Assembly: GCA_035288465.1 (NCBI GenBank)
Contig: DATEAH010000005.1
Location: 3,636 to 67,635, forward strand
Source of the DNA: Patescibacteria group bacterium
Lineage (GTDB): Bacteria; Patescibacteriota; UBA1384; DATEAH01
Reading direction: 5' to 3'
Length of the DNA: 64,000 nt
This document shows positions 6,362 to 45,940 of the stretch, piece after piece. The notes below the pieces were generated by a model that made no database searches, was not told where the DNA came from, and saw only the letters and a list, made by a program, of their open reading frames with translations. The position numbers and the translations under genes were made by a program. How positions within the stretch are numbered: position 1 is the stretch's first letter; every line of letters starts with the position of its first letter.

Positions 6362-6976
6362 CTATTCAGCTTTAACTAAGACTAAATTACTCTTGGCTGC
6401 ACCCGGAACAGCCCCTTTGATTAATATAATATTTTTATCAGCTTGAACATCAATGATGACGGCTTTTTTAATGGTGATATTATCACTGCCCATATGTCCC
6501 GGCATTTTTTTGCCTTTTACGACGTGTTGTGGAAACATGGAACCAATTGATCCTGGACGACGATGGTGGTGTGAACCATGAGTCTCTGGACCTCGAGAAA
6601 AGCCATGTCTTTTGATTACACCAGCAAAGCCTTTTCCCTTTGAAACTCCTTGAACATTGACTTTATCGCCAGTTTGAAAAATATCCGCTTTGATTTCTTG
6701 CCCAAGTTCCAAATTATCAATTTTCTTGGCGGGAATTTCTCTAACAAAACTTAAATTTTTCGAAATTTTAGCTTTAGCGAGATGACCCTTTTGGGTTTTT
6801 AAAAGATGCTTTTTTTCACGAAAAGCTAATTGGACGGCGGTGTAACCATCTTTTTCTGGCGTCCTTAATTGCGAGATATAACATGGCCCAGCTTCAACGA
6901 CGGTGACTGGCTGAGGATGATTTTTATCGTCATAAACTTGGGTCATGCCAATTTTTCTGGCGAGAATAAAATTCAT
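6362..6976 (-). CDS. rplC: 50S ribosomal protein L3
   Basis: MNFILARKIGMTQVYDD... GKKMPGHMG; 204 aa. Confidence 0.93.
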   Translation of the reverse strand: MNFILARKIGMTQVYDDKNHPQPVTVVEAGPCYISQLRTPEKDGYTAVQLAFREKKHLLKTQKGHLAKAKISKNLSFVREIPAKKIDNLELGQEIKADIFQTGDKVNVQGVSKGKGFAGVIKRHGFSRGPETHGSHHHRRPGSIGSMFPQHVVKGKKMPGHMGSDNITIKKAVIIDVQADKNIILIKGAVPGAAKSNLVLVKAE

Positions 6977-7102
6977 ATTATCTCTCTAAAAAATAAATTA
7001 ATCGTCCGGAACTAGCCTTAATTTTATCTTTTAATTATCTAAAAGTATCAAGGCTGTTATCTGGACTTTAACTTTAAAATTATCAATTTAGCAATTATTT
7101 AT

Positions 7103-7131
7103 ATTCTATCTCAAAATTTTTAGAAAGTCAA
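7103..7131 (-). promoter_or_regulatory. Sigma-70-like promoter upstream of rplC (minus strand: TTGACT-N17-TAGAAT)
   Basis: rc of 7126-7131 = TTGACT; rc of 7103-7108 = TAGAAT; 17-nt spacer; ~120 nt upstream of the rplC start. Confidence 0.5.
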
Positions 7132-7155
7132 CATTTATAGTATTTATAGTATTTT

Positions 7156-7824
7156 TTAGGTGGTAAATTCAAAAGTGGCAAGAATATCATCAGAGATTGA
7201 ATCGTGAGTGCCAGCCGCATTTGAATTTTCCCACATAATCGAATATTCTTTACCTTTATAAATGATATAAATCGTCGTTTGAAAGCTGCCGTCCAACATG
7301 CTGGGGGTGGTGGAGACTAATTTTAAAGCACTTTGACCATCAACAGTAATAGTAGATTCGATATCGGCTGAGTCTTGGCTTCTTAATTGGGCAAAGGTTT
7401 GTGTTTCAGAAGGAATTACCACGGACAATTTAGTAATTTTATATTCTGATTCGCAAGGAGGAGTATTGCCAAAATCAGTATCATCAACTAAAACTAAATC
7501 TTTGGTGCCAACTCTTCTACTATAGGTTTGGGTATCATAGCAACCTTCAGCGACAAAATAATTTGTTGGATATTTGAATTGATAATTTTGAGGCTCATTA
7601 ATATAGGTTTTCCAGTCGGCAGTTTTTTTATCGATCCCGGAACTACTTTCATCATCTGAGGTTGAGTTAGGTTTTACAGTCACGGTGGCGCTCTTTTTTT
7701 CTAAATCTGGAATGATTTTGTAATTGTAATAAGCCCAGACACCACCGCCGGCAGCCGCAGCAGCTAAAAGCACCAATAAAATACCCAAAATTGTGGAAAT
7801 CCCTTTTTCGGAATTTGGTTCCAT
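7156..7824 (-). CDS. Hypothetical membrane-anchored protein (N-terminal signal-anchor, extracytoplasmic domain); paralog of 7864..8838
   Basis: N-terminus GISTILGILLVLLAAAAAGGGVWAYYNYKIIPDLEKK is near-identical to that of the adjacent upstream gene; contains an FKYPTNYF motif. Inserted between rpsJ and rplC. Confidence 0.7.
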   Translation of the reverse strand: MEPNSEKGISTILGILLVLLAAAAAGGGVWAYYNYKIIPDLEKKSATVTVKPNSTSDDESSSGIDKKTADWKTYINEPQNYQFKYPTNYFVAEGCYDTQTYSRRVGTKDLVLVDDTDFGNTPPCESEYKITKLSVVIPSETQTFAQLRSQDSADIESTITVDGQSALKLVSTTPSMLDGSFQTTIYIIYKGKEYSIMWENSNAAGTHDSISDDILATFEFTT

Positions 7825-7863
7825 TTTCCCTCCTTGATGAATTGTTTTATAATTTAGAATATT

Positions 7864-8838
7864 CTAAAACTTTAATGATTTCATTGCCAAATCAATGGTG
7901 TCCATTAATTCACCAAAACTCAATTGACTTCGTGTTTTAGATTCAATTAAAGTTTTAAATTCAGCATGGATTCTTGTATTAACGATTTCTTGTTGATTGA
8001 GGGCGGTATTATTTAATTGATCATTGAGAGCTTTGGTTTCTTTGGTAAAGGAAGACATACTATAATCAATGTTTACAACCGCGTTTTCGTCTTGATTAAA
8101 AAGTACTACATAATAGGTAGGATAAATCCCGACATCTTGTCCGGAAGTATTAATGCAAGAGAAACCGCGTGATTTATTGTCTGTGGAAGCAATGTATTTC
8201 CAGCTAATGGCGGACGAACCATTATATGGAAAAAATTCAATACTGAATTTACTTAAACGATTTATCAATTCGGGGGCTAGCTTTTGATTACTATATATTT
8301 CTTTCATCAAGGTTAATGCTTGCTTTCTTTCCGCTGAGGGCATAGTATATGGTTCGTTGGACGAATAGTTGCTCCATTTTGTCAAATTAGCATATTCTCC
8401 AATAACATTTGATTCGGTTTCTTTTTTATTCACCATATAAAATGAAATATCTTCCTTGGTGTTATTTTCCCATCCACTCTCCCTTCCACTCTCCCTAGTA
8501 ATTTTCCAGGTTTCTGGATATTTTAAAGTTGCTTTAGAAAAATCTAGGGTTAAAGTTTTCCAATTTGCAGTTTCGTCAGTTTTCGGGGTGGTGGTTGTTG
8601 AAGTCGAGGCTTTGTTGAGGTCTGGGATGACTCGATAGTTGTAATACGCCCAAACGCCACCACCAGCTAATAGCGCAATTAATAATAAGAGCAAAATTCC
8701 AGTAATTGTGGAAATGCCCTCTTGTGGATTTTCTCCATTGGTTGGCTCGCTTGTTGGTGCAGCTGGTGCTTGTTCGGTTGGTGGAGTTGGATCAGGTGCG
8801 GGATTAGCCACATGAAATTGATCTTGTTCTTCGCCCAT
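7864..8838 (-). CDS. Hypothetical membrane-anchored protein with Pro-rich cytoplasmic N-terminus; paralog of 7156..7824
   Basis: GISTITGILLLLLIALLAGGGVWAYYNYRVIPDLNK anchor; LKYPETWKI motif; 324 aa. Confidence 0.7.
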   Translation of the reverse strand: MGEEQDQFHVANPAPDPTPPTEQAPAAPTSEPTNGENPQEGISTITGILLLLLIALLAGGGVWAYYNYRVIPDLNKASTSTTTTPKTDETANWKTLTLDFSKATLKYPETWKITRESGRESGWENNTKEDISFYMVNKKETESNVIGEYANLTKWSNYSSNEPYTMPSAERKQALTLMKEIYSNQKLAPELINRLSKFSIEFFPYNGSSAISWKYIASTDNKSRGFSCINTSGQDVGIYPTYYVVLFNQDENAVVNIDYSMSSFTKETKALNDQLNNTALNQQEIVNTRIHAEFKTLIESKTRSQLSFGELMDTIDLAMKSLKF

Positions 8839-8892: not shown

Positions 8893-9225
8893 CTACATTT
8901 TAATTTCAATATCAACTCCGGCGGGTAAATCGAGTGTCATCAAAGAATCTACGGTTTTTGAAGTGGGATTGACAATATCAATTAAACGTTTGTGAACACG
9001 CATTTCAAACTGTTCTCGGGCATCTTTATGGACATTCGGCGATTTTAGGACGGTATAAAGAGTCCGTTGCGTGGGCAAAGGAATTGGACCCGACACTAAG
9101 GCACCGGTTCTTTCCGCGGTTTCAACAATTTTCTCCGCGGCATTATCGGCAATTCGATAATCAAAGGCAGTTAATTTAATGCGAATCTTGGTTTTCTTTT
9201 TAATACTAGTGGTCTTGGGAGACAT
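8893..9225 (-). CDS. rpsJ: 30S ribosomal protein S10
   Basis: [39 protein letters not shown]... is canonical S10. Confidence 0.93.
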
Positions 9226-9239
9226 TTTTTTAAATTCCT

Positions 9240-9384
9240 AAATATTTTCTACAAAATACGAATCGGCACAAAAATACAAAAAGTTGATTGAAGTTGATTG
9301 ATTTTATATAATACGAATTCTGACAAAAATACGAAACGTAAAATTTTATTTTTGTATTTTGGTATAATTTTTGTATTTCGTAGA
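9240..9384. promoter_or_regulatory. Repeat-rich tuf-rpsJ intergenic region (CAAAAATACGAA units, direct and inverted; tandem GTTGATTGA x2)
   Basis: Direct reading: acaaaatacgaatcggcacaaaaatacaaaaag ... aatacgaattctgacaaaaatacgaaacg ... ttttgtatttcgtag. Confidence 0.35.
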
Positions 9385-10572
9385 TTACTTTATAACTTTA
9401 GTAACGACACCGGCACCAACAGTCTTGCCACCTTCTCGAATGGCAAATCTCATTTTTTCTTCGATGGCAACCGGTTGAATTAATTTAATTTTTAAATTAG
9501 TGGTGTCGCCCGGCATAACCATTTCCGTACCTTCTGATAATTCAACTTCGCCGGTCACATCAGTGGTGCGAATATAGAATTGTGGTTTATAACCTTTAAA
9601 AAACGGGGTATGTCGACCACCTTCTTCTTTTGTCAAAACATAAACTTCGGCTTCAAATTCGGTATGAGGCGTAATTGAGCTGGGCTTGGCTAAAACTTGT
9701 CCTCGCTCAACTTGGTCCCTTTCGATACTTCTCAAAAGCACCCCGACATTATCGCCGGCTTGACCTTCGTTTAGGGATTTTCTAAACATTTCTACGCCGG
9801 TGACAGTGGTTTTTTTAGTCGGATGCAAACCAATTATTTCTAATTCCTCGCCAACTTTAACAATGCCTCTTTCAATTTTGCCGGTCACGACAGTACCGCG
9901 ACCTTTAATTGAAAAAACGTCTTCAACTGGCATCAAAAATGGCTTGTCGGTTTCTCTCTTGGGATCTGGGATAAAATCATCCATGGCTTTTAAGAGTTCT
10001 TCGATTGATTTTTCCGCTTCCGCATCGCCTTCTAAGGCTTTTAAGGCAGAACCTCGAATAATGGGGGTTTTATCGCCAGGATATTTATATTTGGTTAAAA
10101 GATCTCTAATTTCTTCTTCCACCAAATCAATTAATTCTGGATCTGAAACTTGATCAACTTTATTGATGAAAACAACAATTTCAGGCACACCCACTTGTCT
10201 GGCTAACAAAATGTGTTCTCGAGTTTGTGGCATTGGGCCATCAGTCGCGGCCACGACTAAAACGGCGCCATCCATTTGCGCGGCACCAGTAATCATGTTT
10301 TTGATGTAGTCTGCATGACCTGGAGCGTCAATGTGTGCATAATGTCGCTTGTCGGTTTCATATTCCAAATGATAAAGTGAAATTGTGAGTCCACGCTCTT
10401 TTTCTTCGGGAGCGTTGTCAATTTGGTCAACTTTAAAAGGCTCAGCTTTGCCTTTTTTGGATAAGACATGGGTAATGGCCGCAGTTAAAGTAGTTTTTCC
10501 ATGGTCAACATGACCAATCGTACCTACGTTTAAGTGGGGCTTGGTTCTTTCGAAGGATTTTTTCTCTGCCAT
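9385..10572 (-). CDS. tuf: Elongation factor Tu
   Basis: [34 protein letters not shown]... The ORF track adds 4 codons upstream (MRRK); MAEKK taken as the start. Confidence 0.95.
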
Positions 10573-10641
10573 TTTTCTCCTCAAAATTTTAGTTTAATGG
10601 ATTTTTATAAATTGATGATTCTATTTTATCAGACTTTTGTT

Positions 10642-10670
10642 ATTTTAACAAACTTTAAATTATATGTCAA
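10642..10670 (-). promoter_or_regulatory. Sigma-70-like promoter upstream of tuf (minus strand: TTGACA-N17-TAAAAT)
   Basis: rc of 10665-10670 = TTGACA; rc of 10642-10647 = TAAAAT. Confidence 0.45.
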
Positions 10671-10712: not shown

Positions 10713-11330
10713 CTAATTAAATTGAAATGATTTTGCAAATGCTTCAAAAATTGGCCAGAATTCATCTTTATCTTGAGAGGCAAACCAACCATCGATTATT
10801 ATTAATTCATCTTTATTTTCGAATTTAATTTCTGCAGGAGCGGTATCTTCTGCAACATCTATATTGCTAATTAAATATTCTGAGGCTAAAAATTTTCCGA
10901 GAGTAATTTTCTTATTAATTTGGAATCGATCGCTGTTGTCGGTGTAACCTTCAAAAATTCCGATGGGCAAAATGCGGACGACAATTTGTGAACCATTTTC
11001 GATTTTTTTCTGGGGAGTGCTACCCCAATTCAAGTCTGAGCTAGAAAAACTAACAAAATCCTGAGCTGGCGATTTAGTGGTATCTTTATCTTCGCTAACT
11101 TTCCAAGTTGAAGGGTGACGAACGCTATAACTATAAGTTAAATTGGAATATTTTATCCAACTTGAAGTTAGCGTCTTTTGCAAATTTGAAGTTTTGTTTT
11201 TAGCGGCATCGGCTGCGGCTTGGTTTGAAGCTGGCACCAAACTTAAACCGGCGGCCCAAATCAAAATTGCCGCGACAGTGGCGCAGGTTATTAGCACAAA
11301 TAAGGCTGGAATTGGATGAACTCTTCTCAT
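10713..11330 (-). CDS. Hypothetical membrane-anchored protein (signal-anchor + extracytoplasmic domain with YSYSVRHPSTWKV motif)
   Basis: N-terminal hydrophobic segment ALFVLITCATVAAILIWAAGL; inserted between fusA and tuf. Confidence 0.65.
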   Translation of the reverse strand: MRRVHPIPALFVLITCATVAAILIWAAGLSLVPASNQAAADAAKNKTSNLQKTLTSSWIKYSNLTYSYSVRHPSTWKVSEDKDTTKSPAQDFVSFSSSDLNWGSTPQKKIENGSQIVVRILPIGIFEGYTDNSDRFQINKKITLGKFLASEYLISNIDVAEDTAPAEIKFENKDELIIIDGWFASQDKDEFWPIFEAFAKSFQFN

Positions 11331-11370: not shown

Positions 11371-13494
11371 TCAACTTTTTTCAGTTTTAGTTTTTTCAAA
11401 ATCTCCCACAATTCGTTCAAAAATATGGTGTGGAACCGGTTCATAATGATCAAATTCCATAGTGGATGAACCGCGACCAGAAGTAAGGGTTCGCAAGGCG
11501 GTGGTGTAACCAAACATGGTTGCCAAGGGCACTTTAGCATCAATGACTTTCATATTGGTGCGGTCTGAAACTTGTTCAATCTGAGCACGGCGGCTGTTCA
11601 GGTCACCGGTGACATCACCCAAATCATCACTGGGGATAATAACTTCTAATTTCATAATCGGTTCGAGAATTTGTGGGGTAGCTTTTTTAACCGCACTTTG
11701 CAAGGCCATGGAACCGGCAATTTGGAAAGCAATTTCCGAAGAGTCAACTTCATGATAAGAACCATCATAAAGAGTCACGGCCAAATCAGTCAAAGGATAG
11801 CCGGCAAGAACCCCTCTTTGCGAAGCTTCTTTGATACCTTTTTCGACTGCTGGAATAAATTCTCGAGGAATGCGGCCACCGACAATTTTATCAATAAATT
11901 CAACGCCTTCGCCCCGTTCTTTGGGCTCAATATTAAGTAAAACGTGACCATATTGACCGCGACCACCGGTTTGTCGAATAAATTTGCCTTCAGCCTTGGC
12001 AGGTGCGGAAATGGTTTCTCTGTAAGCTACTTGAGGATTGCCAATATTAGCTTCGACGGAAAATTCACGCTTCATGCGGTCAACCAAAATTTCTAGATGT
12101 AATTCACCCATGCCAGAAATAATTGTTTGGCTGGTTTCTTCATCAACTTTGACTTTGAAGGTGGGATCTTCCTCGGCCAATCTTTTTAACGATTGGGCTA
12201 ATTTTTCTTGATCGGCTTTTGTTTTCGGTTCAATGGCAATGGAAATGACCGGATCTGGAAAATTAATTTTTTCCAAAATAACCGGTTTTGCGGGGTCACA
12301 CAAGGTATCGCCAGTAGTGGTCTCTTTTAAGCCCACGGCCGCGGCAATATCACCCGCATAGACCTCTTTGACTTCTTCGCGATGATTAGCGTGCATTCTT
12401 AAAATTCGGCCGATTCTTTCTCTCGCGCCGGTGCTGGCATTTAAAATATATGAGCCCGAGGATAAGGTTCCAGAATATACCCTAAAAAAGGCTAATTTGC
12501 CGACAAAAGGATCAGCGGCAATTTTAAACGCTAAAGCCGCAAATGGGGCGGAATCTTCGGGTTTAATTTCAATTTCGGTTTCATCTTTGGGGTTAGTACC
12601 TTTAATTTGAGGAGCTTCCAAGGGTGATGGTAAAAATCCAGCCACCGCATCTAATAAAGGCTGAACGCCTTTGTTTTTTAGGGCAGAACCGGTTAAAACT
12701 GGATAAATTTTATTTTCAATAGTGGCTTTTCGCAAAGCTTGATATAACTCATCATTAGTAATTTCTTTGCCGTCTAAATATTTTTGTAAAAGATCGTTTG
12801 AAGTCTCAACAATTTCTTCAATCATTTTATGACGCCATTTCTCAGCTTGAGCGTGATATTCCTCAGGCATTTCACTGGTGGTTAAGTCTTTGCCCAATTC
12901 ATCAGCGTGTTTATAGGCTTTCATTTCAAATAAATTGATAATGCCTTCAAATTTATCCTCAGAACCGATTGGGATTTGGATGACAACGGCTTTGGCACCT
13001 AATTTATCTTTGATTGATTTAAATGATTTTTCAAAATCGGCACCCATACGATCCATTTTATTGATAAAACAAATTCGAGGCACTGCAAATTTATCAGCTT
13101 GACGCCAAACAGTTTCTGATTGTGGTTCAACACCGGCGACACCATCAAAAACTACCACCGCACCATCTAAAACACGGAGTGAGCGTTGGACTTCAGCGGT
13201 AAAATCAATGTGGCCCGGAGTATCAATAATATTAATCAAACAATTACCGTTAGAATCATCTAACCATTTGGGGATTGGCCAAAAACTGGTGGTCGCCGCC
13301 GCCGTAATAGTGATGCCGCGTTCTTTTTCTTGTTCCATCCAGTCCATCACCGCCGTACCTTCGTGAACTTCACCAATTTTATAGGTTTTTCCAGAATAAT
13401 ATAAAATGCGCTCTGTGACAGTGGTTTTGCCAGCATCAATATGAGCAATAATACCAATATTTCTAATTTTTTCGATCGGGTATTCGCGAGCCAT
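11371..13494 (-). CDS. fusA: Elongation factor G
   Basis: [35 protein letters not shown]...; 707 aa. Confidence 0.95.
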
Positions 13495-40642: not shown

Positions 40643-41179
40643 TTGGAACCGGAAATGATCGGAGGGGAGGAAAATCTGGTGGGAGTAAAAGAACCGCCAC
40701 TCTATCATCTGGCTCGAAGTATTATTGAAGATTTGGATTTATCCTTGAGCAACGAAGAAATAGTGAACCGATGCAATTTGACTTCAACATCACCCCATGG
40801 TTGGCAGGCGATTGTCAGACCGGGCTGGTTTGAGTGTTTCGCGGCGATTCTTCGCGAATGTTTATCCCCTGAAAAAGAACCACGAGAGGAATTAAAAGAA
40901 CAACAACAAAGATGTACATTATTTGCAAATCAACTGCTATATGCTGGCAAGCCGGAAAATGCCATGGAGCCGGTAGAGACAGAATTTAAAGATTCCGGAA
41001 ACAGCACCACGTCAATCGTGATTGGACTACTTACAAGAATTTATTTTCATCAAACCGCCAGTCTGGTCGGGATTGAAATTTTGCCCGAAGAACAAAGCGA
41101 ATCATCCGATGGTTCCGATCATGACGATTCCGCTGACGTTAAAATCAACCAAAGACCTAATTTGTCATTAGTTGAATAA
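40643..41179 (+). CDS. Hypothetical acidic protein (178 aa), divergent from the preceding gene
   Basis: ORF MEPEMIGGEENLVGV...; acidic C-terminus; followed by a terminator. Confidence 0.55.
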   Translation: MEPEMIGGEENLVGVKEPPLYHLARSIIEDLDLSLSNEEIVNRCNLTSTSPHGWQAIVRPGWFECFAAILRECLSPEKEPREELKEQQQRCTLFANQLLYAGKPENAMEPVETEFKDSGNSTTSIVIGLLTRIYFHQTASLVGIEILPEEQSESSDGSDHDDSADVKINQRPNLSLVE

Positions 41180-43003: not shown

Positions 43004-43687
43004 CTATTTAAATTCAAGGCTGCGAATTAATTGCTGGAAAAGTTCGCCATAATCTGAGTCCAAAGAAGCTGAACCTGAGGCTGGGAAAAACATAGTCGCC
43101 AAAAAATTAGTGCCGTTATGGGTAAAAGGAGCGCGGATTACATTAGTATTTCTGGGATTATCAGTGGTGGCAGGTTGATTATAGAAAGAATATTTGACGG
43201 TTTGGCAAATAATTTGCATATCTGTTTCAGATTCGAGATTTAAACCTTTGGTAGTAAAACCGCTCACTTTATCACCAGCCACAATAATAATATTTGAAAC
43301 CTTCGCAATATCCTCTTCGCCACTCACAACACTGACTTCTGTCCATTTGTTCACGCCAGTATCAGCAATCGACCAATCATCAGGATATTTAAAAGAATGA
43401 TTATATTCAGTATTAGTAAATGTTTTCCAGCCTGGCATTTGCGCCTTATCGGTCGAGGTTAGCGAATCTGCACAGGGTGTATTTTGAGCAGTAGCGGTAG
43501 TGGCTGAATTAGTGGTGGTAGCGCTGTCGGATTTTTTCTCGCCAGAACCAATCTCAGAGACTAAGGCCGGGGTATTTTTACTTTCCTTGATAATCGTCCA
43601 GGAATAATATCCTAAAACTCCTAACGCTAAAACTGCGATTATTAGCATCACAATTTTCACGGTTTGCACTTTGTTAAATGAACCCAT
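43004..43687 (-). CDS. Hypothetical membrane-anchored secreted protein (FKYPDDW motif family)
   Basis: Start taken at MGSFNKVQTVKIVMLIIAVLALGVLGYYSW (avoids overlap with the sortase gene); Thr/Ser-rich linker; FKYPDDWSI motif. Confidence 0.6.
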   Translation of the reverse strand: MGSFNKVQTVKIVMLIIAVLALGVLGYYSWTIIKESKNTPALVSEIGSGEKKSDSATTTNSATTATAQNTPCADSLTSTDKAQMPGWKTFTNTEYNHSFKYPDDWSIADTGVNKWTEVSVVSGEEDIAKVSNIIIVAGDKVSGFTTKGLNLESETDMQIICQTVKYSFYNQPATTDNPRNTNVIRAPFTHNGTNFLATMFFPASGSASLDSDYGELFQQLIRSLEFK

Positions 43688-43716
43688 AACCCCCCTTTTT
43701 AAATTCAATTTGGTTT

Positions 43717-44319
43717 TTATTTTATTTTGGCAATAATTACTAATCTTTTTTCCAAGGAACCTATCGGCCAGCAAGTCATTAAAGTTAATCTTTTCTCAAA
43801 AGTTTGCCCTAAAACTGAAAAATCATCAGGTTGAACAATTTTTTTCCCAATAACTTTGTATTCGTATTCTCGACTTTTATAAACCACTTTTATGGTATCA
43901 TCATCTTGCAGATCGTTTAAGTTAATAAAAATCTGGCGGTAATGGCCCCCAAAATCACTTGATGAATGCCCAAAGATAAAAATATTTCCAACCTTTCCCG
44001 GATAGGGTGTACCTGAATAATGGACAACGCCTTTTTTGAGCAATTTCTGATATAAATCTGGCTGGTTACTATCAGCTTCACCCGCAACTGGCACCCTGAC
44101 ATTGATTTTATCAATTTGAAGGCCAAATTTTTGGAAAGCGACTTCATCAATTTGAAGACTTGACTCGGCATTTTTTTCAGCATTAACTTTATTTGTTTTT
44201 TGAAATGGATTTTTAGGGTGCAATTTATAAAATATAGAATAGCCGATAATAAAATTAATTACCAAATAAACTAAAATCCCAGATGAAATTAGGAAAATCT
44301 GCTTTTTTTTATTGTTCAT
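43717..44319 (-). CDS. Sortase (transpeptidase)
   Basis: N-terminal TM; conserved His (IFIFGHSS) and catalytic Cys in an LTLMTCWP (TLxTC) motif. Confidence 0.85.
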   Translation of the reverse strand: MNNKKKQIFLISSGILVYLVINFIIGYSIFYKLHPKNPFQKTNKVNAEKNAESSLQIDEVAFQKFGLQIDKINVRVPVAGEADSNQPDLYQKLLKKGVVHYSGTPYPGKVGNIFIFGHSSSDFGGHYRQIFINLNDLQDDDTIKVVYKSREYEYKVIGKKIVQPDDFSVLGQTFEKRLTLMTCWPIGSLEKRLVIIAKIK

Positions 44320-45940
44320 AAATTCTTTTATATTTCCGTCGAATTAGCGATGCCATCATTAAAACCAAAGGAATAGATAATAGAATCGGGATAATAGGCT
44401 TATTGGAAGTGATTTTCCCAGTGGCTGGTAGGGTGGCTGCATCAATGTGCAGGCTCAATTGCCGATATACAAGTTGCTGTGGAGAGCCCGAATCTAAAAC
44501 AACAACATAAAAAGTATAATCACCGGCCACAGTTGGCGTCCCGTTAATTCGGCCTGAACTACTATCTAAAGATAAACCGGCCGGTAAGATGCCAAAATAA
44601 TCCTCACATTCTTCATCCCCGGGATTATATAAATTAAGATCTTTAAGCCCTTCTTTGAAAAGATCGGCTTCTTGTGGTTGCAAATCACCGTAATCAATTT
44701 GGCAAAAATATGAAGCGACATACCAGCTTAGCGGATTTGTGCCGGAATTTGACTCTAAGCTCGTCGAATAACTTGAACCTTGGGTTCCGTTTGGCAATTG
44801 AGTGGTGGTGATACTCAATAAATCTACTGGGCTTGACCGCCAAACCTCGGTGCCAGTACCGGCGTTAGAAAAAGCCACATAAAGCCTTTCATTAAAAGTG
44901 ACGGCAAATAAAGCATAATTTGCCGCACTGCCAAAACCATCGGTTTTTTCTTTTGTCCAAGTGGTACCATTAGTGCTGCGATACAATTGGGCACCAGTCA
45001 CCCCATTTCTGGTTCCGAGCCAAAATACTCCATTCACCACCGCCCCCTCATAACCTACCCAAATGTTGTTATCAGAACCAAAACCATCTGTATTAGCTTG
45101 AGTCCAAGCAGTGCCATTGGCTGATCGCCATAATTCCGTGCCGGTCGCAGAGTTTATTGTGCCGGCGTATAAATAACCATTGAATGATTGTAATAAATTG
45201 GTTGAAGAATTGGCAGCTGAACCAAAGCCGTTGGTATTTACTTGCGTCCAACTTTCTCCATCTAAGCTTCGATATATTTTCGTCCCAGTCGCATTGGTGA
45301 CTCCAGCATACAGATAACCGCCAAAAATACTCAAAGAACGAGTTGATGTATTAGCGGCAACGCCAAAACCATCAGTGTTGGTTTGGTCCCAGCTTGTGCC
45401 GTTTGTGGTTCGCCAAATTTCCGTACCTGTGGTGATATTTTCAGTTGCCACATATAAATATCCACCAAATGAGGCAACAGCTCTGGAACCTAAATTATTA
45501 GCATCGCCAAGTCCATCGGTGCCTGATTGTGACCAAGTCCCGGTGGCACCAGTGGCCGAACGCCAAACTTCTAAAACTCCGGCGCCGCTGGTGATGGTGG
45601 TGGCATAAAGATAACCTCCATGACCCACAAAAGCATGAATTTCATCATTATCAGCATTACTAAAACCGCCAGAGACAACTTGACTCCAAACCGTACCATT
45701 GGCTGATCGCCAAATTTGAGCACCAGCGGCAGTATTTGATACCCCGGCAAAAACATAGCCGCCATAAACATAAAGACGAATATCACCCCAGTTAGCGGCA
45801 TTACCAAAACCATCGTCATTAACTTGGCTCCAAGTATATAAATCAGCGGCTTTGGTGGTGGTGGGCAAAAACGAAAAAATAATAAAGAAACATATTAATA
45901 AATAAAAAACAATTCTTGGGCCGAATTTCGTTTTTCTCAT
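44309..45940 (-). CDS. LPXTG-anchored surface protein with ~8 tandem ~48-aa beta-propeller-like repeats and an Ig-like domain
   Basis: Signal peptide. Repeats WxQxNTDGFGxAANxxxxxLxxFxGYLYAGTxNxxTGTELWRSxNGTxW. C-terminal sorting signal LPATGK + hydrophobic segment + RRKYKR. Confidence 0.8.
   Translation of the reverse strand: MRKTKFGPRIVFYLLICFFIIFSFLPTTTKAADLYTWSQVNDDGFGNAANWGDIRLYVYGGYVFAGVSNTAAGAQIWRSANGTVWSQVVSGGFSNADNDEIHAFVGHGGYLYATTITSGAGVLEVWRSATGATGTWSQSGTDGLGDANNLGSRAVASFGGYLYVATENITTGTEIWRTTNGTSWDQTNTDGFGVAANTSTRSLSIFGGYLYAGVTNATGTKIYRSLDGESWTQVNTNGFGSAANSSTNLLQSFNGYLYAGTINSATGTELWRSANGTAWTQANTDGFGSDNNIWVGYEGAVVNGVFWLGTRNGVTGAQLYRSTNGTTWTKEKTDGFGSAANYALFAVTFNERLYVAFSNAGTGTEVWRSSPVDLLSITTTQLPNGTQGSSYSTSLESNSGTNPLSWYVASYFCQIDYGDLQPQEADLFKEGLKDLNLYNPGDEECEDYFGILPAGLSLDSSSGRINGTPTVAGDYTFYVVVLDSGSPQQLVYRQLSLHIDAATLPATGKITSNKPIIPILLSIPLVLMMASLIRRKYKRIYEQ

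Follow-up and report, generated by a model that had tools for sequence, protein, structure and literature searches.

Few gene orders in bacteria are as conserved as that of the str-S10-spc array, which serves as a phylogenetic and binning anchor. This raises the question of why a Patescibacteria genome should carry two extra genes between rpsJ (ribosomal protein S10) and rplC (ribosomal protein L3), and of how the surrounding operons accommodate them. We investigated a stretch of 64,000 nucleotides (nt) from the Patescibacteria group bacterium assembly GCA_035288465.1 (contig DATEAH010000005.1, positions 3,636 to 67,635 of the forward strand; hereafter the window), in which two open reading frames (ORFs) of 324 and 222 residues, ORF324 and ORF222, lie at this junction. 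The minus-strand order is rpoB, rpoC, rpsL, rpsG, fusA, ORF205, tuf, rpsJ, ORF324, ORF222, rplC, rplD, rplW, rplB, and onward (coordinates in Table 1). The answer that we favor, with modest confidence, is a clade-specific operon layout, in which envelope genes ride as passengers at the ends of transcription units, and a conserved promoter and leader restart transcription at rplC.

In the canonical bacterial S10 operon, rpsJ is followed directly by rplC within one unit, whereas here 1916 nt, two genes, and a conserved internal promoter come between the rpsJ stop and the rplC start. The spacers in this interval measure 54, 39, and 179 nt, and AAGGAGG-type Shine-Dalgarno (SD) sites precede both ORF324 and ORF222. 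As a background set, we used 80 unrelated genomes from distant phyla, retrieved through L3 (identity ≤56%) from among the matches listed; in 78 of them, rpsJ and rplC lie 18-277 nt apart. One locus (L066) has only ∼320 nt upstream of rplC in the available sequence, which leaves 79 loci assessable for rpsJ; the sole one with no rpsJ within 2.6 kb upstream of rplC belongs to a Fimbriimonadaceae metagenome-assembled genome (L048, JAHBTC010000055). The junction, which the original prediction had called invariant, is therefore better described as strongly conserved. The Fimbriimonadaceae contig carries, in its positions 1-2600, two co-directional unrelated ORFs (442 and 336 residues) upstream of rplC, the shorter with a signal-like hydrophobic segment.

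The two inserted ORFs were predicted with exact coordinates, lengths, and anchor motif, and they are real genes. The window proteins are recorded at NCBI as HLC38647-52 (locus tags VJJ80_; a Patescibacteria/Candidate Phyla Radiation metagenome-assembled genome), proteins identical to them occur on 17-23 contigs from four sources (NCBI, JGI, Logan, and ENA), and the gene order is repeated on a separately assembled ENA contig (L003). Together with the strong SD sites, synteny in diverged relatives, and homologs with E values down to 1e-77, these observations make an assembly or binning artefact, or spurious ORFs, a practically negligible explanation.

The closest L3 relatives among 5.8 billion proteins are only 60-66% identical, so this lineage is sparsely sampled; a scan of metagenomes with a degenerate anchor pattern confirmed four short contigs, two of them informative. 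Synteny with these relatives, a comparison proposed with the original prediction, gave the same layout in L086, L088, L089, and L090/L091, and remnants in L094 and L095. The order is (i) fusA, a 193-residue gene, tuf, rpsJ, genes of 316 and 280 residues, and rplC in L086 (GCA_004196255.1); (ii) fusA, a 214-residue gene, tuf, rpsJ, genes of 197 and 183 residues, and rplC in L088; (iii) tuf, rpsJ, a 230-residue gene, and rplC in L090/L091, which represent one organism; and (iv) a partial 213-residue gene immediately 5′ of rplC in L089. S10 of the window is 83-86% identical to that of L086 and L088. ORF324 has an ortholog at the same position in L086 (L086_316; 41%, E 2e-64), the 230-residue ORF of L090 matches ORF222 along its full length (tblastn, 37%, E 2e-42), and all three L088 proteins carry the anchor motif described below. 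The junction that had been read as a single insertion is instead a slot conserved in the clade, the content of which changes.

This change takes several forms. The second slot gene of L086 (9005-9847) is a 280-residue Cys-rich ORF at the position of ORF222, with no homolog and no Pfam, PHROG, or PADLOC match; since it also lies in a block of 50-53% G+C between flanks of 37-40%, it is probably foreign, horizontally acquired DNA. In L096, an ORF of at least 768 residues with CarboxypepD_reg domains and an HExxH motif, a surface protein, stands upstream of rplC. In the more distant L094 and L095 (L3 57-59%), the rpsJ-rplC gap of 600-712 nt holds remnants: the L094 gap encodes ...ETAEWKIYTNKKYGYSFKYPKDWEY broken by stops and looks like a decayed member of the anchored family, and the L095 gap contains a coiled-coil ORF of 92 residues, which shares 53% identity (E 1e-29) with the one that precedes P0002, a homolog of ORF324, at a non-ribosomal locus (L002). 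This coiled-coil family (∼92 residues, MxEQDKKEIRxIF...) is found at L095 9422-9700, L002 849-1130, and L094 8167-8259, and the coiled-coil ORF and an anchored PsbP-like gene may form a two-gene cassette that occurs both in the ribosomal slot and elsewhere. Nine contigs from different samples (L097-L105), with the same L3 as L096, start 227-368 nt upstream of rplC, mostly at or just before the leader, which suggests that strain-level variability of the slot breaks the assemblies there.

A second slot lies between fusA and the tuf promoter, where ORF205 encodes a third membrane-anchored paralog. ORF205 has an ortholog at the same position in L086 (L086_193; 39%, E 2e-49), which aligns weakly to PsbP_2 over its full length; the corresponding slot of L088 holds a 214-residue anchor-family PsbP_2 protein, and L094 and L095 have no insert between fusA and tuf. 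Profile-profile comparison (hhalign) of the ORF205 and ORF222 families gave 96% probability, through the same N-terminal module. The fusA-tuf spacing is 786 nt in the window; of 13 background genomes, 12 have a spacing between -3 and 93 nt. As judged from gene order and sequence, both slots are conserved across the clade, with contents that turn over.

We next consider what the inserted genes encode. ORF324 and ORF222 are tandem genes that were predicted to share a nearly identical signal-anchor, and BLASTP, profile comparison, and DNA repeats all bear this out. The two proteins are 51% identical over their first 83 residues (BLASTP, E 3e-10) and 72.5% identical over a 40-residue anchor core, and their families align by hhalign with 99.3% probability (E 9e-21, 79 columns), the homology being limited to the anchor, the linker, and the first β-strands. 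The anchor-coding DNA is 74-77% identical in constant register at a 915-nt offset, which is consistent with an old tandem duplication. In alignments, conservation is higher in the anchor module than in the ectodomains. When 1.84 billion representatives were searched by profile, the N-terminal module alone proved common to ∼1950 representative clusters; its strand motif WKTY..F.YP is present in 93 of the 147 top superfamily matches, and the juxtamembrane motif WAYYNYK.IPDL, present in 3 of the 147, is clade-specific. ORF324, ORF222, and ORF205 thus have one architecture, namely a transmembrane anchor, a Ser/Thr-rich linker, and a PsbP/Mog1-type domain that starts W-K-T-Y...F-K-Y-P..W, and a single-pass N-terminal anchor joined to a PsbP/Mog1-type domain is very common in Patescibacteria.

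ORF222, named "PsbP-related protein" by NCBI, comprises the anchor, a linker, and a PsbP_2-type ectodomain. Residues 52-220 align to positions 25-184 of the 184 in PsbP_2 (PF18933), nearly the full domain, with a score of 20.9 bits (E 4e-4), which is below the Pfam gathering cut-off of 27 bits; the ortholog L089_213p (41% identity to ORF222, E 2e-45) and the paralog-type L088_214 exceed it, at 35.1 and 27.7 bits, respectively. The assignment of ORF222 to PsbP_2 is hence one of transitive homology, its own score lying below the cut-off and those of its relatives above, and on the sequence comparisons ORF222 probably belongs to the family through its orthologs. A conserved Cys pair is common to ORF222 and L089_213p.

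ORF324 comprises an acidic Pro-rich tail, a single transmembrane anchor, a Thr-rich linker, and an ectodomain of ∼230 residues from an uncurated family, which matches ∼40 clusters along the ectodomain in the same profile search. Searched directly and by way of 30 family members, ORF324 has no sequence match in Pfam, NCBIfam, or the PDB; PF18933 and PF01789 did not match ORF324 itself, and each gave one weak match (E 2e-3) among the 30. An AlphaFold2 (AF2) model from a four-sequence alignment (predicted template-modelling score, pTM, 0.64; predicted local distance difference test, pLDDT, mostly 70-90 in the ectodomain) suggests a PsbP/Mog1-like fold with a C-terminal helical extension. Its Foldseek neighbors in the PDB, namely PsbP, SciW, DcrB, cyanobacterial PsbP (template-modelling score 0.55 by target), LpqN, and PA0094, are all of the Mog1/PsbP fold, with a best E of 4e-3. 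The prediction of C-terminal structures, which had been proposed as a check, gave weak E values for ORF324 and failed for ORF222, where the model from a single sequence reached a pLDDT of only 37.7. Taken with the Pfam scores of ORF222 and its orthologs, it indicates that the two ectodomains, described as divergent in the original prediction, probably belong to one fold class, PsbP/Mog1. Profile searches of the ORF222 and ORF324 families against PDB sequences returned nothing useful, and NCBIfam, PHROGs, and PADLOC gave only sub-threshold transmembrane or low-complexity matches to the inserts.

The ectodomains are predicted to lie outside the membrane, given the composition of the linkers, a lipoprotein among the relatives (P0005), the sortase neighborhood of a fourth paralog (see below), and the conserved Cys pair of ORF222 and L089_213p. 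A bacterial lipoprotein anchor was rejected for the inserts themselves: they have no lipobox ([LVI][ASTVI][GAS]C), ORF222 has no Cys before residue 95, and ORF324 has none among its first 120 residues; a lipobox is, by contrast, present in P0005, a distant relative. A type IV pilin-like (class III) signal was also rejected, as the anchor motif K-G-I-S-T-x-x-G-I-L has no Glu at +5, unlike G/A-F/M-T/S-L-x-E, and pilin and SoxE_N models gave only faint, transmembrane-driven matches below cut-off. No enzyme signature was found in the inserted proteins. The ORF324 family conserves a polar D-x-K-S-R-G-F...G-Q-D motif, which suggests a specific ligand or partner, and an envelope scaffold or ligand-binding role for the anchored proteins may be envisaged.

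Among known proteins, the inserts resemble the PsbP/Mog1 superfamily (PsbP, CyanoP, DcrB, LpqN, and DUF1795 Eag chaperones such as SciW), ORF222 through PF18933 and ORF324 through its model neighbors. Like DcrB and LpqN, they appear to be membrane-tethered extracytoplasmic domains without enzyme motifs. They differ from these proteins in that (i) the anchor is an uncleaved-looking transmembrane helix with the aromatic WAYYNYK.IPDL motif rather than a lipobox; (ii) ORF324 lacks a significant match to PF18933 or PF01789 and has extra helices and its own D-x-K-S-R-G-F...G-Q-D motif; and (iii) no photosystem, type VI secretion system, or MmpL partner lies near the window inserts.

How the inserts are transcribed depends on the promoters that flank them. 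The rplC promoter that had been predicted is present, and its -35 and -10 hexamers align in the window, L086, L088, and L090; the promoter also occurs in L096, L095, and L089, and in all its conservation extends to seven genomes besides the window. The proposal that rplC had newly acquired it through the insertion does not hold, since promoter and leader elements occur where the slot contains remnants (L094 and L095). Each insert forms the 3′ end of its unit, directly before the next conserved promoter. Across genomes, the spacer from rpsJ to the insert is 40-54 nt with a conserved SD site, and a scan of the window found no terminator-like hairpin in any spacer. Promoter-like hexamers (10-11 of 12 matches) also precede ORF324 (8909-8881), ORF222 (7890-7861), and ORF205. 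As a conserved promoter, the candidate before ORF324 was rejected: its -10 falls in a 14-nt insertion specific to the window, and its -35 is rpsJ coding sequence. The simplest reading, and a plausible one, is co-transcription of the inserts with fusA or with tuf-rpsJ. High expression, which had been proposed to be growth-coupled, would likewise be plausible for the inserts, although only ORF222 has codon usage like that of ribosomal genes; the codon index, a weak proxy for expression, is 0.699 for ORF222, above all 35 non-translation genes of the window and beside a mean of 0.687 for the translation set.

Between its promoter and its start codon, rplC carries a structured leader. A nested three-stem hairpin is conserved in five diverged genomes, in which 94.7% of cells are paired (19 pairs) and 9 of the 19 pairs show compensatory double changes; none of 500 shuffles reached the observed values, and slid registers were 30-62% paired. 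A covariance model built from these five genomes gave matches in the relatives only 5′ of rplC, namely one in L089, which had not been used for training (66.5 bits), and shorter forms immediately before rplC in L095 and L094 (28 and 26 bits). Scores did not exceed 21.5 bits in the 80 distant genomes, or 19 bits in a control set of 80 pattern-matched loci (chance matches in viral contigs). Folding of single sequences reproduced the leader in six of seven cases (z-scores -0.75 to -4.0, the window at -4.0). Its conserved loops are GGAUAAC, GAUAC, and GAUAAAAU. No Rfam family reached its gathering score in the window, where no rRNA gene of this organism lies either, and positions 6900-7200 gave only noise at E > 1. 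L088 alone (8310-8347) has a possible alternative structure, in which the outer stem opens and its 3′ arm pairs with a segment farther downstream (UUCCGGACAA...UUGUUCGGAA).

A conserved, covarying structure in the 5′ untranslated region (UTR) of a ribosomal-protein operon is one mark of ribosomal-protein leaders, beside binding by an encoded ribosomal protein with feedback on expression or rRNA mimicry, and the rplC hairpin is such a structure; it is probably an attenuator-type leader. Transcription attenuation is likelier than SD occlusion, because the distance from leader to start codon varies from 28 to ∼160 nt and a U-rich tract follows the hairpin, and by analogy the attenuation may be exerted by a ribosomal protein. 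The S10 leader of Escherichia coli responds to L4 by attenuation and translational control (PMC3616713), and a candidate L4 leader lies upstream of rplC in Archaeoglobi (PMC7247131). The window hairpin would resemble both as a conserved structured 5′ UTR RNA of an L3/L4 operon, with a U-tract behind it in the manner of an attenuator. It differs from the E. coli leader by standing before rplC, not rpsJ, and by forming one hairpin of three nested stems where that leader has five hairpins; moreover, it matches no Rfam family, known S10/L4 leaders included, in sequence or structure, and direct SD occlusion is unlikely for it.

The layout that we favor would comprise three units, namely rpsL-rpsG-fusA-ORF205; tuf-rpsJ-ORF324-ORF222, from the tuf promoter; and rplC and the genes behind it, from the rplC promoter and leader. 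The passengers would always take the last positions of a unit, immediately 5′ of the next promoter, and, being last, an extra gene should exert no polar effect on essential genes. The slots would be old, being kept across genomes with L3 only ∼65% identical, and their contents would have changed by duplication, replacement, foreign DNA, and decay. We infer that the inserts are co-transcribed with the translation genes: read-through from the tuf and str promoters is the likeliest origin of their transcripts, and their supply would then follow that of the translation apparatus. The hairpin and U-tract would halt or limit transcription into rplC, whether it arrives by read-through or starts at the promoter, a metering that resembles the ribosomal-protein-controlled attenuation of the E. 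coli S10 leader. As promoter and leader are present where the slot has decayed, the operon boundary probably came first, and the site then became tolerant. Several observations weigh against this layout. The related genomes sampled number only ∼6-8, as metagenomic contigs; the hexamers before ORF324 and ORF222 make independent transcription possible; and the codon indices of ORF324 (0.618) and ORF205 (0.623) are near the background of 0.603. The homologs P0002 (48% identical to ORF324, an ortholog) and P0003 lie among unrelated housekeeping genes, so function does not require a ribosomal location. The topology is uncertain, as the N-terminal tail of ORF324 is acidic, not basic, and on the side of structure the best Foldseek E of ORF324 is weak and the ORF222 model is unusable.

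Some of these same observations would suit neutral passengers that have their own promoters, ordinary expression, and no regulatory tie to the translation genes, their synteny following from immobile flanks. Promoter-like sites upstream of all three inserts, the near-background codon usage of ORF324 and ORF205, paralogs and orthologs in housekeeping neighborhoods, and a slot content that can be replaced, even by foreign and decayed DNA, all fit this explanation. We nonetheless regard it as rather unlikely, for the ORF324-proximal promoter is specific to the window, the spacers are very short with no terminator between rpsJ and the inserts, the codon index of ORF222 exceeds that of every non-translation gene, and orthologs have kept the same slot over ∼35% L3 divergence. 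At the other extreme, the envelope genes could be wired to the 3′ ends of translation operons, so that the promoters of ribosome synthesis meter surface growth and a new attenuator sensing a ribosomal protein insulates the rplC operon; we hold this stronger form of the layout to be unlikely. A newly inserted mobile or recently transferred cassette, either the ORF324-ORF222 pair or the coiled-coil ORF with an anchored PsbP-like gene, is very unlikely. The 92/93-residue coiled-coil ORF does precede an ORF324-type gene in L002 and follow rpsJ in L095, with fragments of both in L094, and the L086 slot does contain compositionally foreign DNA. In the window, by contrast, searches for direct or inverted repeats on either side of the inserts and for tRNA genes gave nothing, no integrase or transposase is present among the ORFs, and no PHROG or PADLOC match was obtained; the G+C content of the inserts (0.37-0.38) equals that of the flanks, only the second L086 ORF being compositionally foreign; and same-position orthologs in diverged genomes speak for age, not recency. 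Finally, a direct role in translation or secretion, in which the proteins would tether ribosomes or the Sec machinery to the membrane or assist their assembly, is most improbable: its only support is the conserved position in two translation-gene slots and an anchor more conserved than the ectodomains, whereas the folded domains are PsbP/Mog1-like and predicted outside the membrane, the cytoplasmic parts are short or disordered, unrelated proteins and pseudogenes can take the slot, and family members occur far from translation genes.

The clade-specific layout has partial precedents. The secY-adk-map-infA genes are non-ribosomal passengers of the spc and alpha clusters, and are ancient, near-universal, and cytoplasmic or translocon-related. 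The window inserts are likewise non-ribosomal, stably embedded, and co-directional, with short spacers; they differ in being clade-specific, fast-evolving envelope proteins whose identity changes between relatives. In cyanobacteria, plastids, and archaea, rps10 is kept with tuf and apart from rplC. Similarly, rpsJ here behaves as the final gene of the tuf unit (tuf-rpsJ spacers of 5-31 nt in relatives), and rplC opens a new unit with its own promoter; unlike in that split, the two units are adjacent and co-directional, with 0.6-1.9 kb of variable content between them. The protein family, very common in Patescibacteria, is thus already known, as are, in principle, ribosomal-cluster passengers and the rpsJ/rplC split, whereas two features are new, namely the two envelope-gene slots, conserved as a pair but with contents that turn over, and the leader of rplC, which is uncatalogued; a literature search returned no account of genes inserted into the S10 region of Patescibacteria, and the single paper that named both PsbP and Patescibacteria had no bearing on the subject.

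Further observations concern the surroundings. The fourth paralog, which has the same architecture, lies outside the ribosomal region; its probable start is Met30 (coordinate 43687). Directly upstream of it are the genes for a sortase (TLMTC motif, 43717-44319) and for a repeat-rich surface protein of 543 residues that carries an LPATG sorting signal (44309-45940, minus strand). The mechanically called tuf ORF begins at TTG (MRRKMAEKK...), whereas relatives begin MAEKK, from which we judge the ATG at 10572 to be the probable true start. The tuf-rpsJ spacer (9226-9384) is 159 nt in the window versus 5-31 nt in relatives, and contains a 38-nt imperfect direct repeat (76%; 9247-9284 and 9302-9339) as well as 12-nt ATTTTTGTATTT repeats. 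From 122 to 45940 (∼46 kb), nearly all ORFs of at least 100 residues are on the minus strand, the exceptions being 40643-41179 and a few ORFs nested within larger minus-strand ORFs; such long co-directional arrays are typical of compact genomes and bear on read-through transcription. In the two more distant Patescibacteria, another non-ribosomal passenger occurs in the spc cluster, namely a 214-residue gene with a weak PDDEXK_1 nuclease match between rplR (L18) and rpsE (S5) (L094 16495-17139, L095 17448-18092).

Table 1. Coordinates of the features discussed, in the window unless a relative is named.
Feature	Position	Strand	Basis or remark
rplC (L3)	6362..6976	-	Pfam Ribosomal_L3 E 1e-15 and NCBI name; opens downstream ribosomal operon
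U-rich tract directly 3′ of leader hairpin, attenuator-like	6988..7001	-	sequence; T-rich run in all aligned relatives
Three-stem leader hairpin, rplC 5′ UTR, GUCCAGAUAAC...GUUCCGGAC	7004..7066	-	63 nt; RNAalifold, covariation
rplC promoter, TTGACT-N17-TAGAAT	7103..7131	-	hexamer scan and conservation
ORF222	7156..7824	-	between ORF324 and rplC
ORF222 anchor and juxtamembrane module, residues 6-41, EKGISTILGILLVLLAAAAAGGGVWAYYNYKIIPDL	7702..7809	-	AF2 helix 6-35
ORF324	7864..8838	-	between rpsJ and rplC
ORF324 anchor and juxtamembrane module, residues 40-74, EGISTITGILLLLLIALLAGGGVWAYYNYRVIPDL	8617..8721	-	AF2 helix 44-75; DNA repeats D1, D2
rpsJ (S10)	8893..9225	-	Pfam Ribosomal_S10 E 7e-37; final conserved gene of tuf-rpsJ unit
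tuf (EF-Tu)	9385..10584	-	ORF call and comparison with relatives
tuf promoter, TTGACA-N17-TAAAAT, extended -10 TG	10642..10670	-	scan, 11/12 matches; conserved in window, L086, L088
ORF205, third membrane-anchored paralog	10713..11330	-	slot between fusA and tuf promoter
fusA (EF-G)	11371..13494	-	neighbor upstream of ORF205
Fourth paralog	43004..43774	-	hmmsearch with N-terminal module, E 5e-10
Leader in L086	9908-9971		
Leader in L088	8264-8328		
Leader in L090	891-955		
Leader in L096	2376-2439		
Leader in L089	727-802		
Leader in L095	9912-9962		
Leader in L094	8772-8822		

For the biology of these organisms, the comparison indicates that the str-S10-spc array has two tolerated slots at promoter-defined boundaries, in which envelope genes particular to a lineage come, go, and replace one another; the variable slot would also account for the repeated breaks in the metagenomic contigs of one relative ∼230-290 nt upstream of rplC. 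The slots offer a concrete view of how abundant surface proteins may be expressed in compact Patescibacteria genomes with very few regulators. Independently of the inserts, the rplC promoter and hairpin form a candidate new ribosomal leader in a phylum without a catalogued RNA of this kind, and they mark a testable operon boundary. Were the stronger and less likely form of the layout true, the wiring and the attenuator would together be a clade-specific regulatory architecture in a genome-reduced lineage with few regulators, not an accident of gene order.

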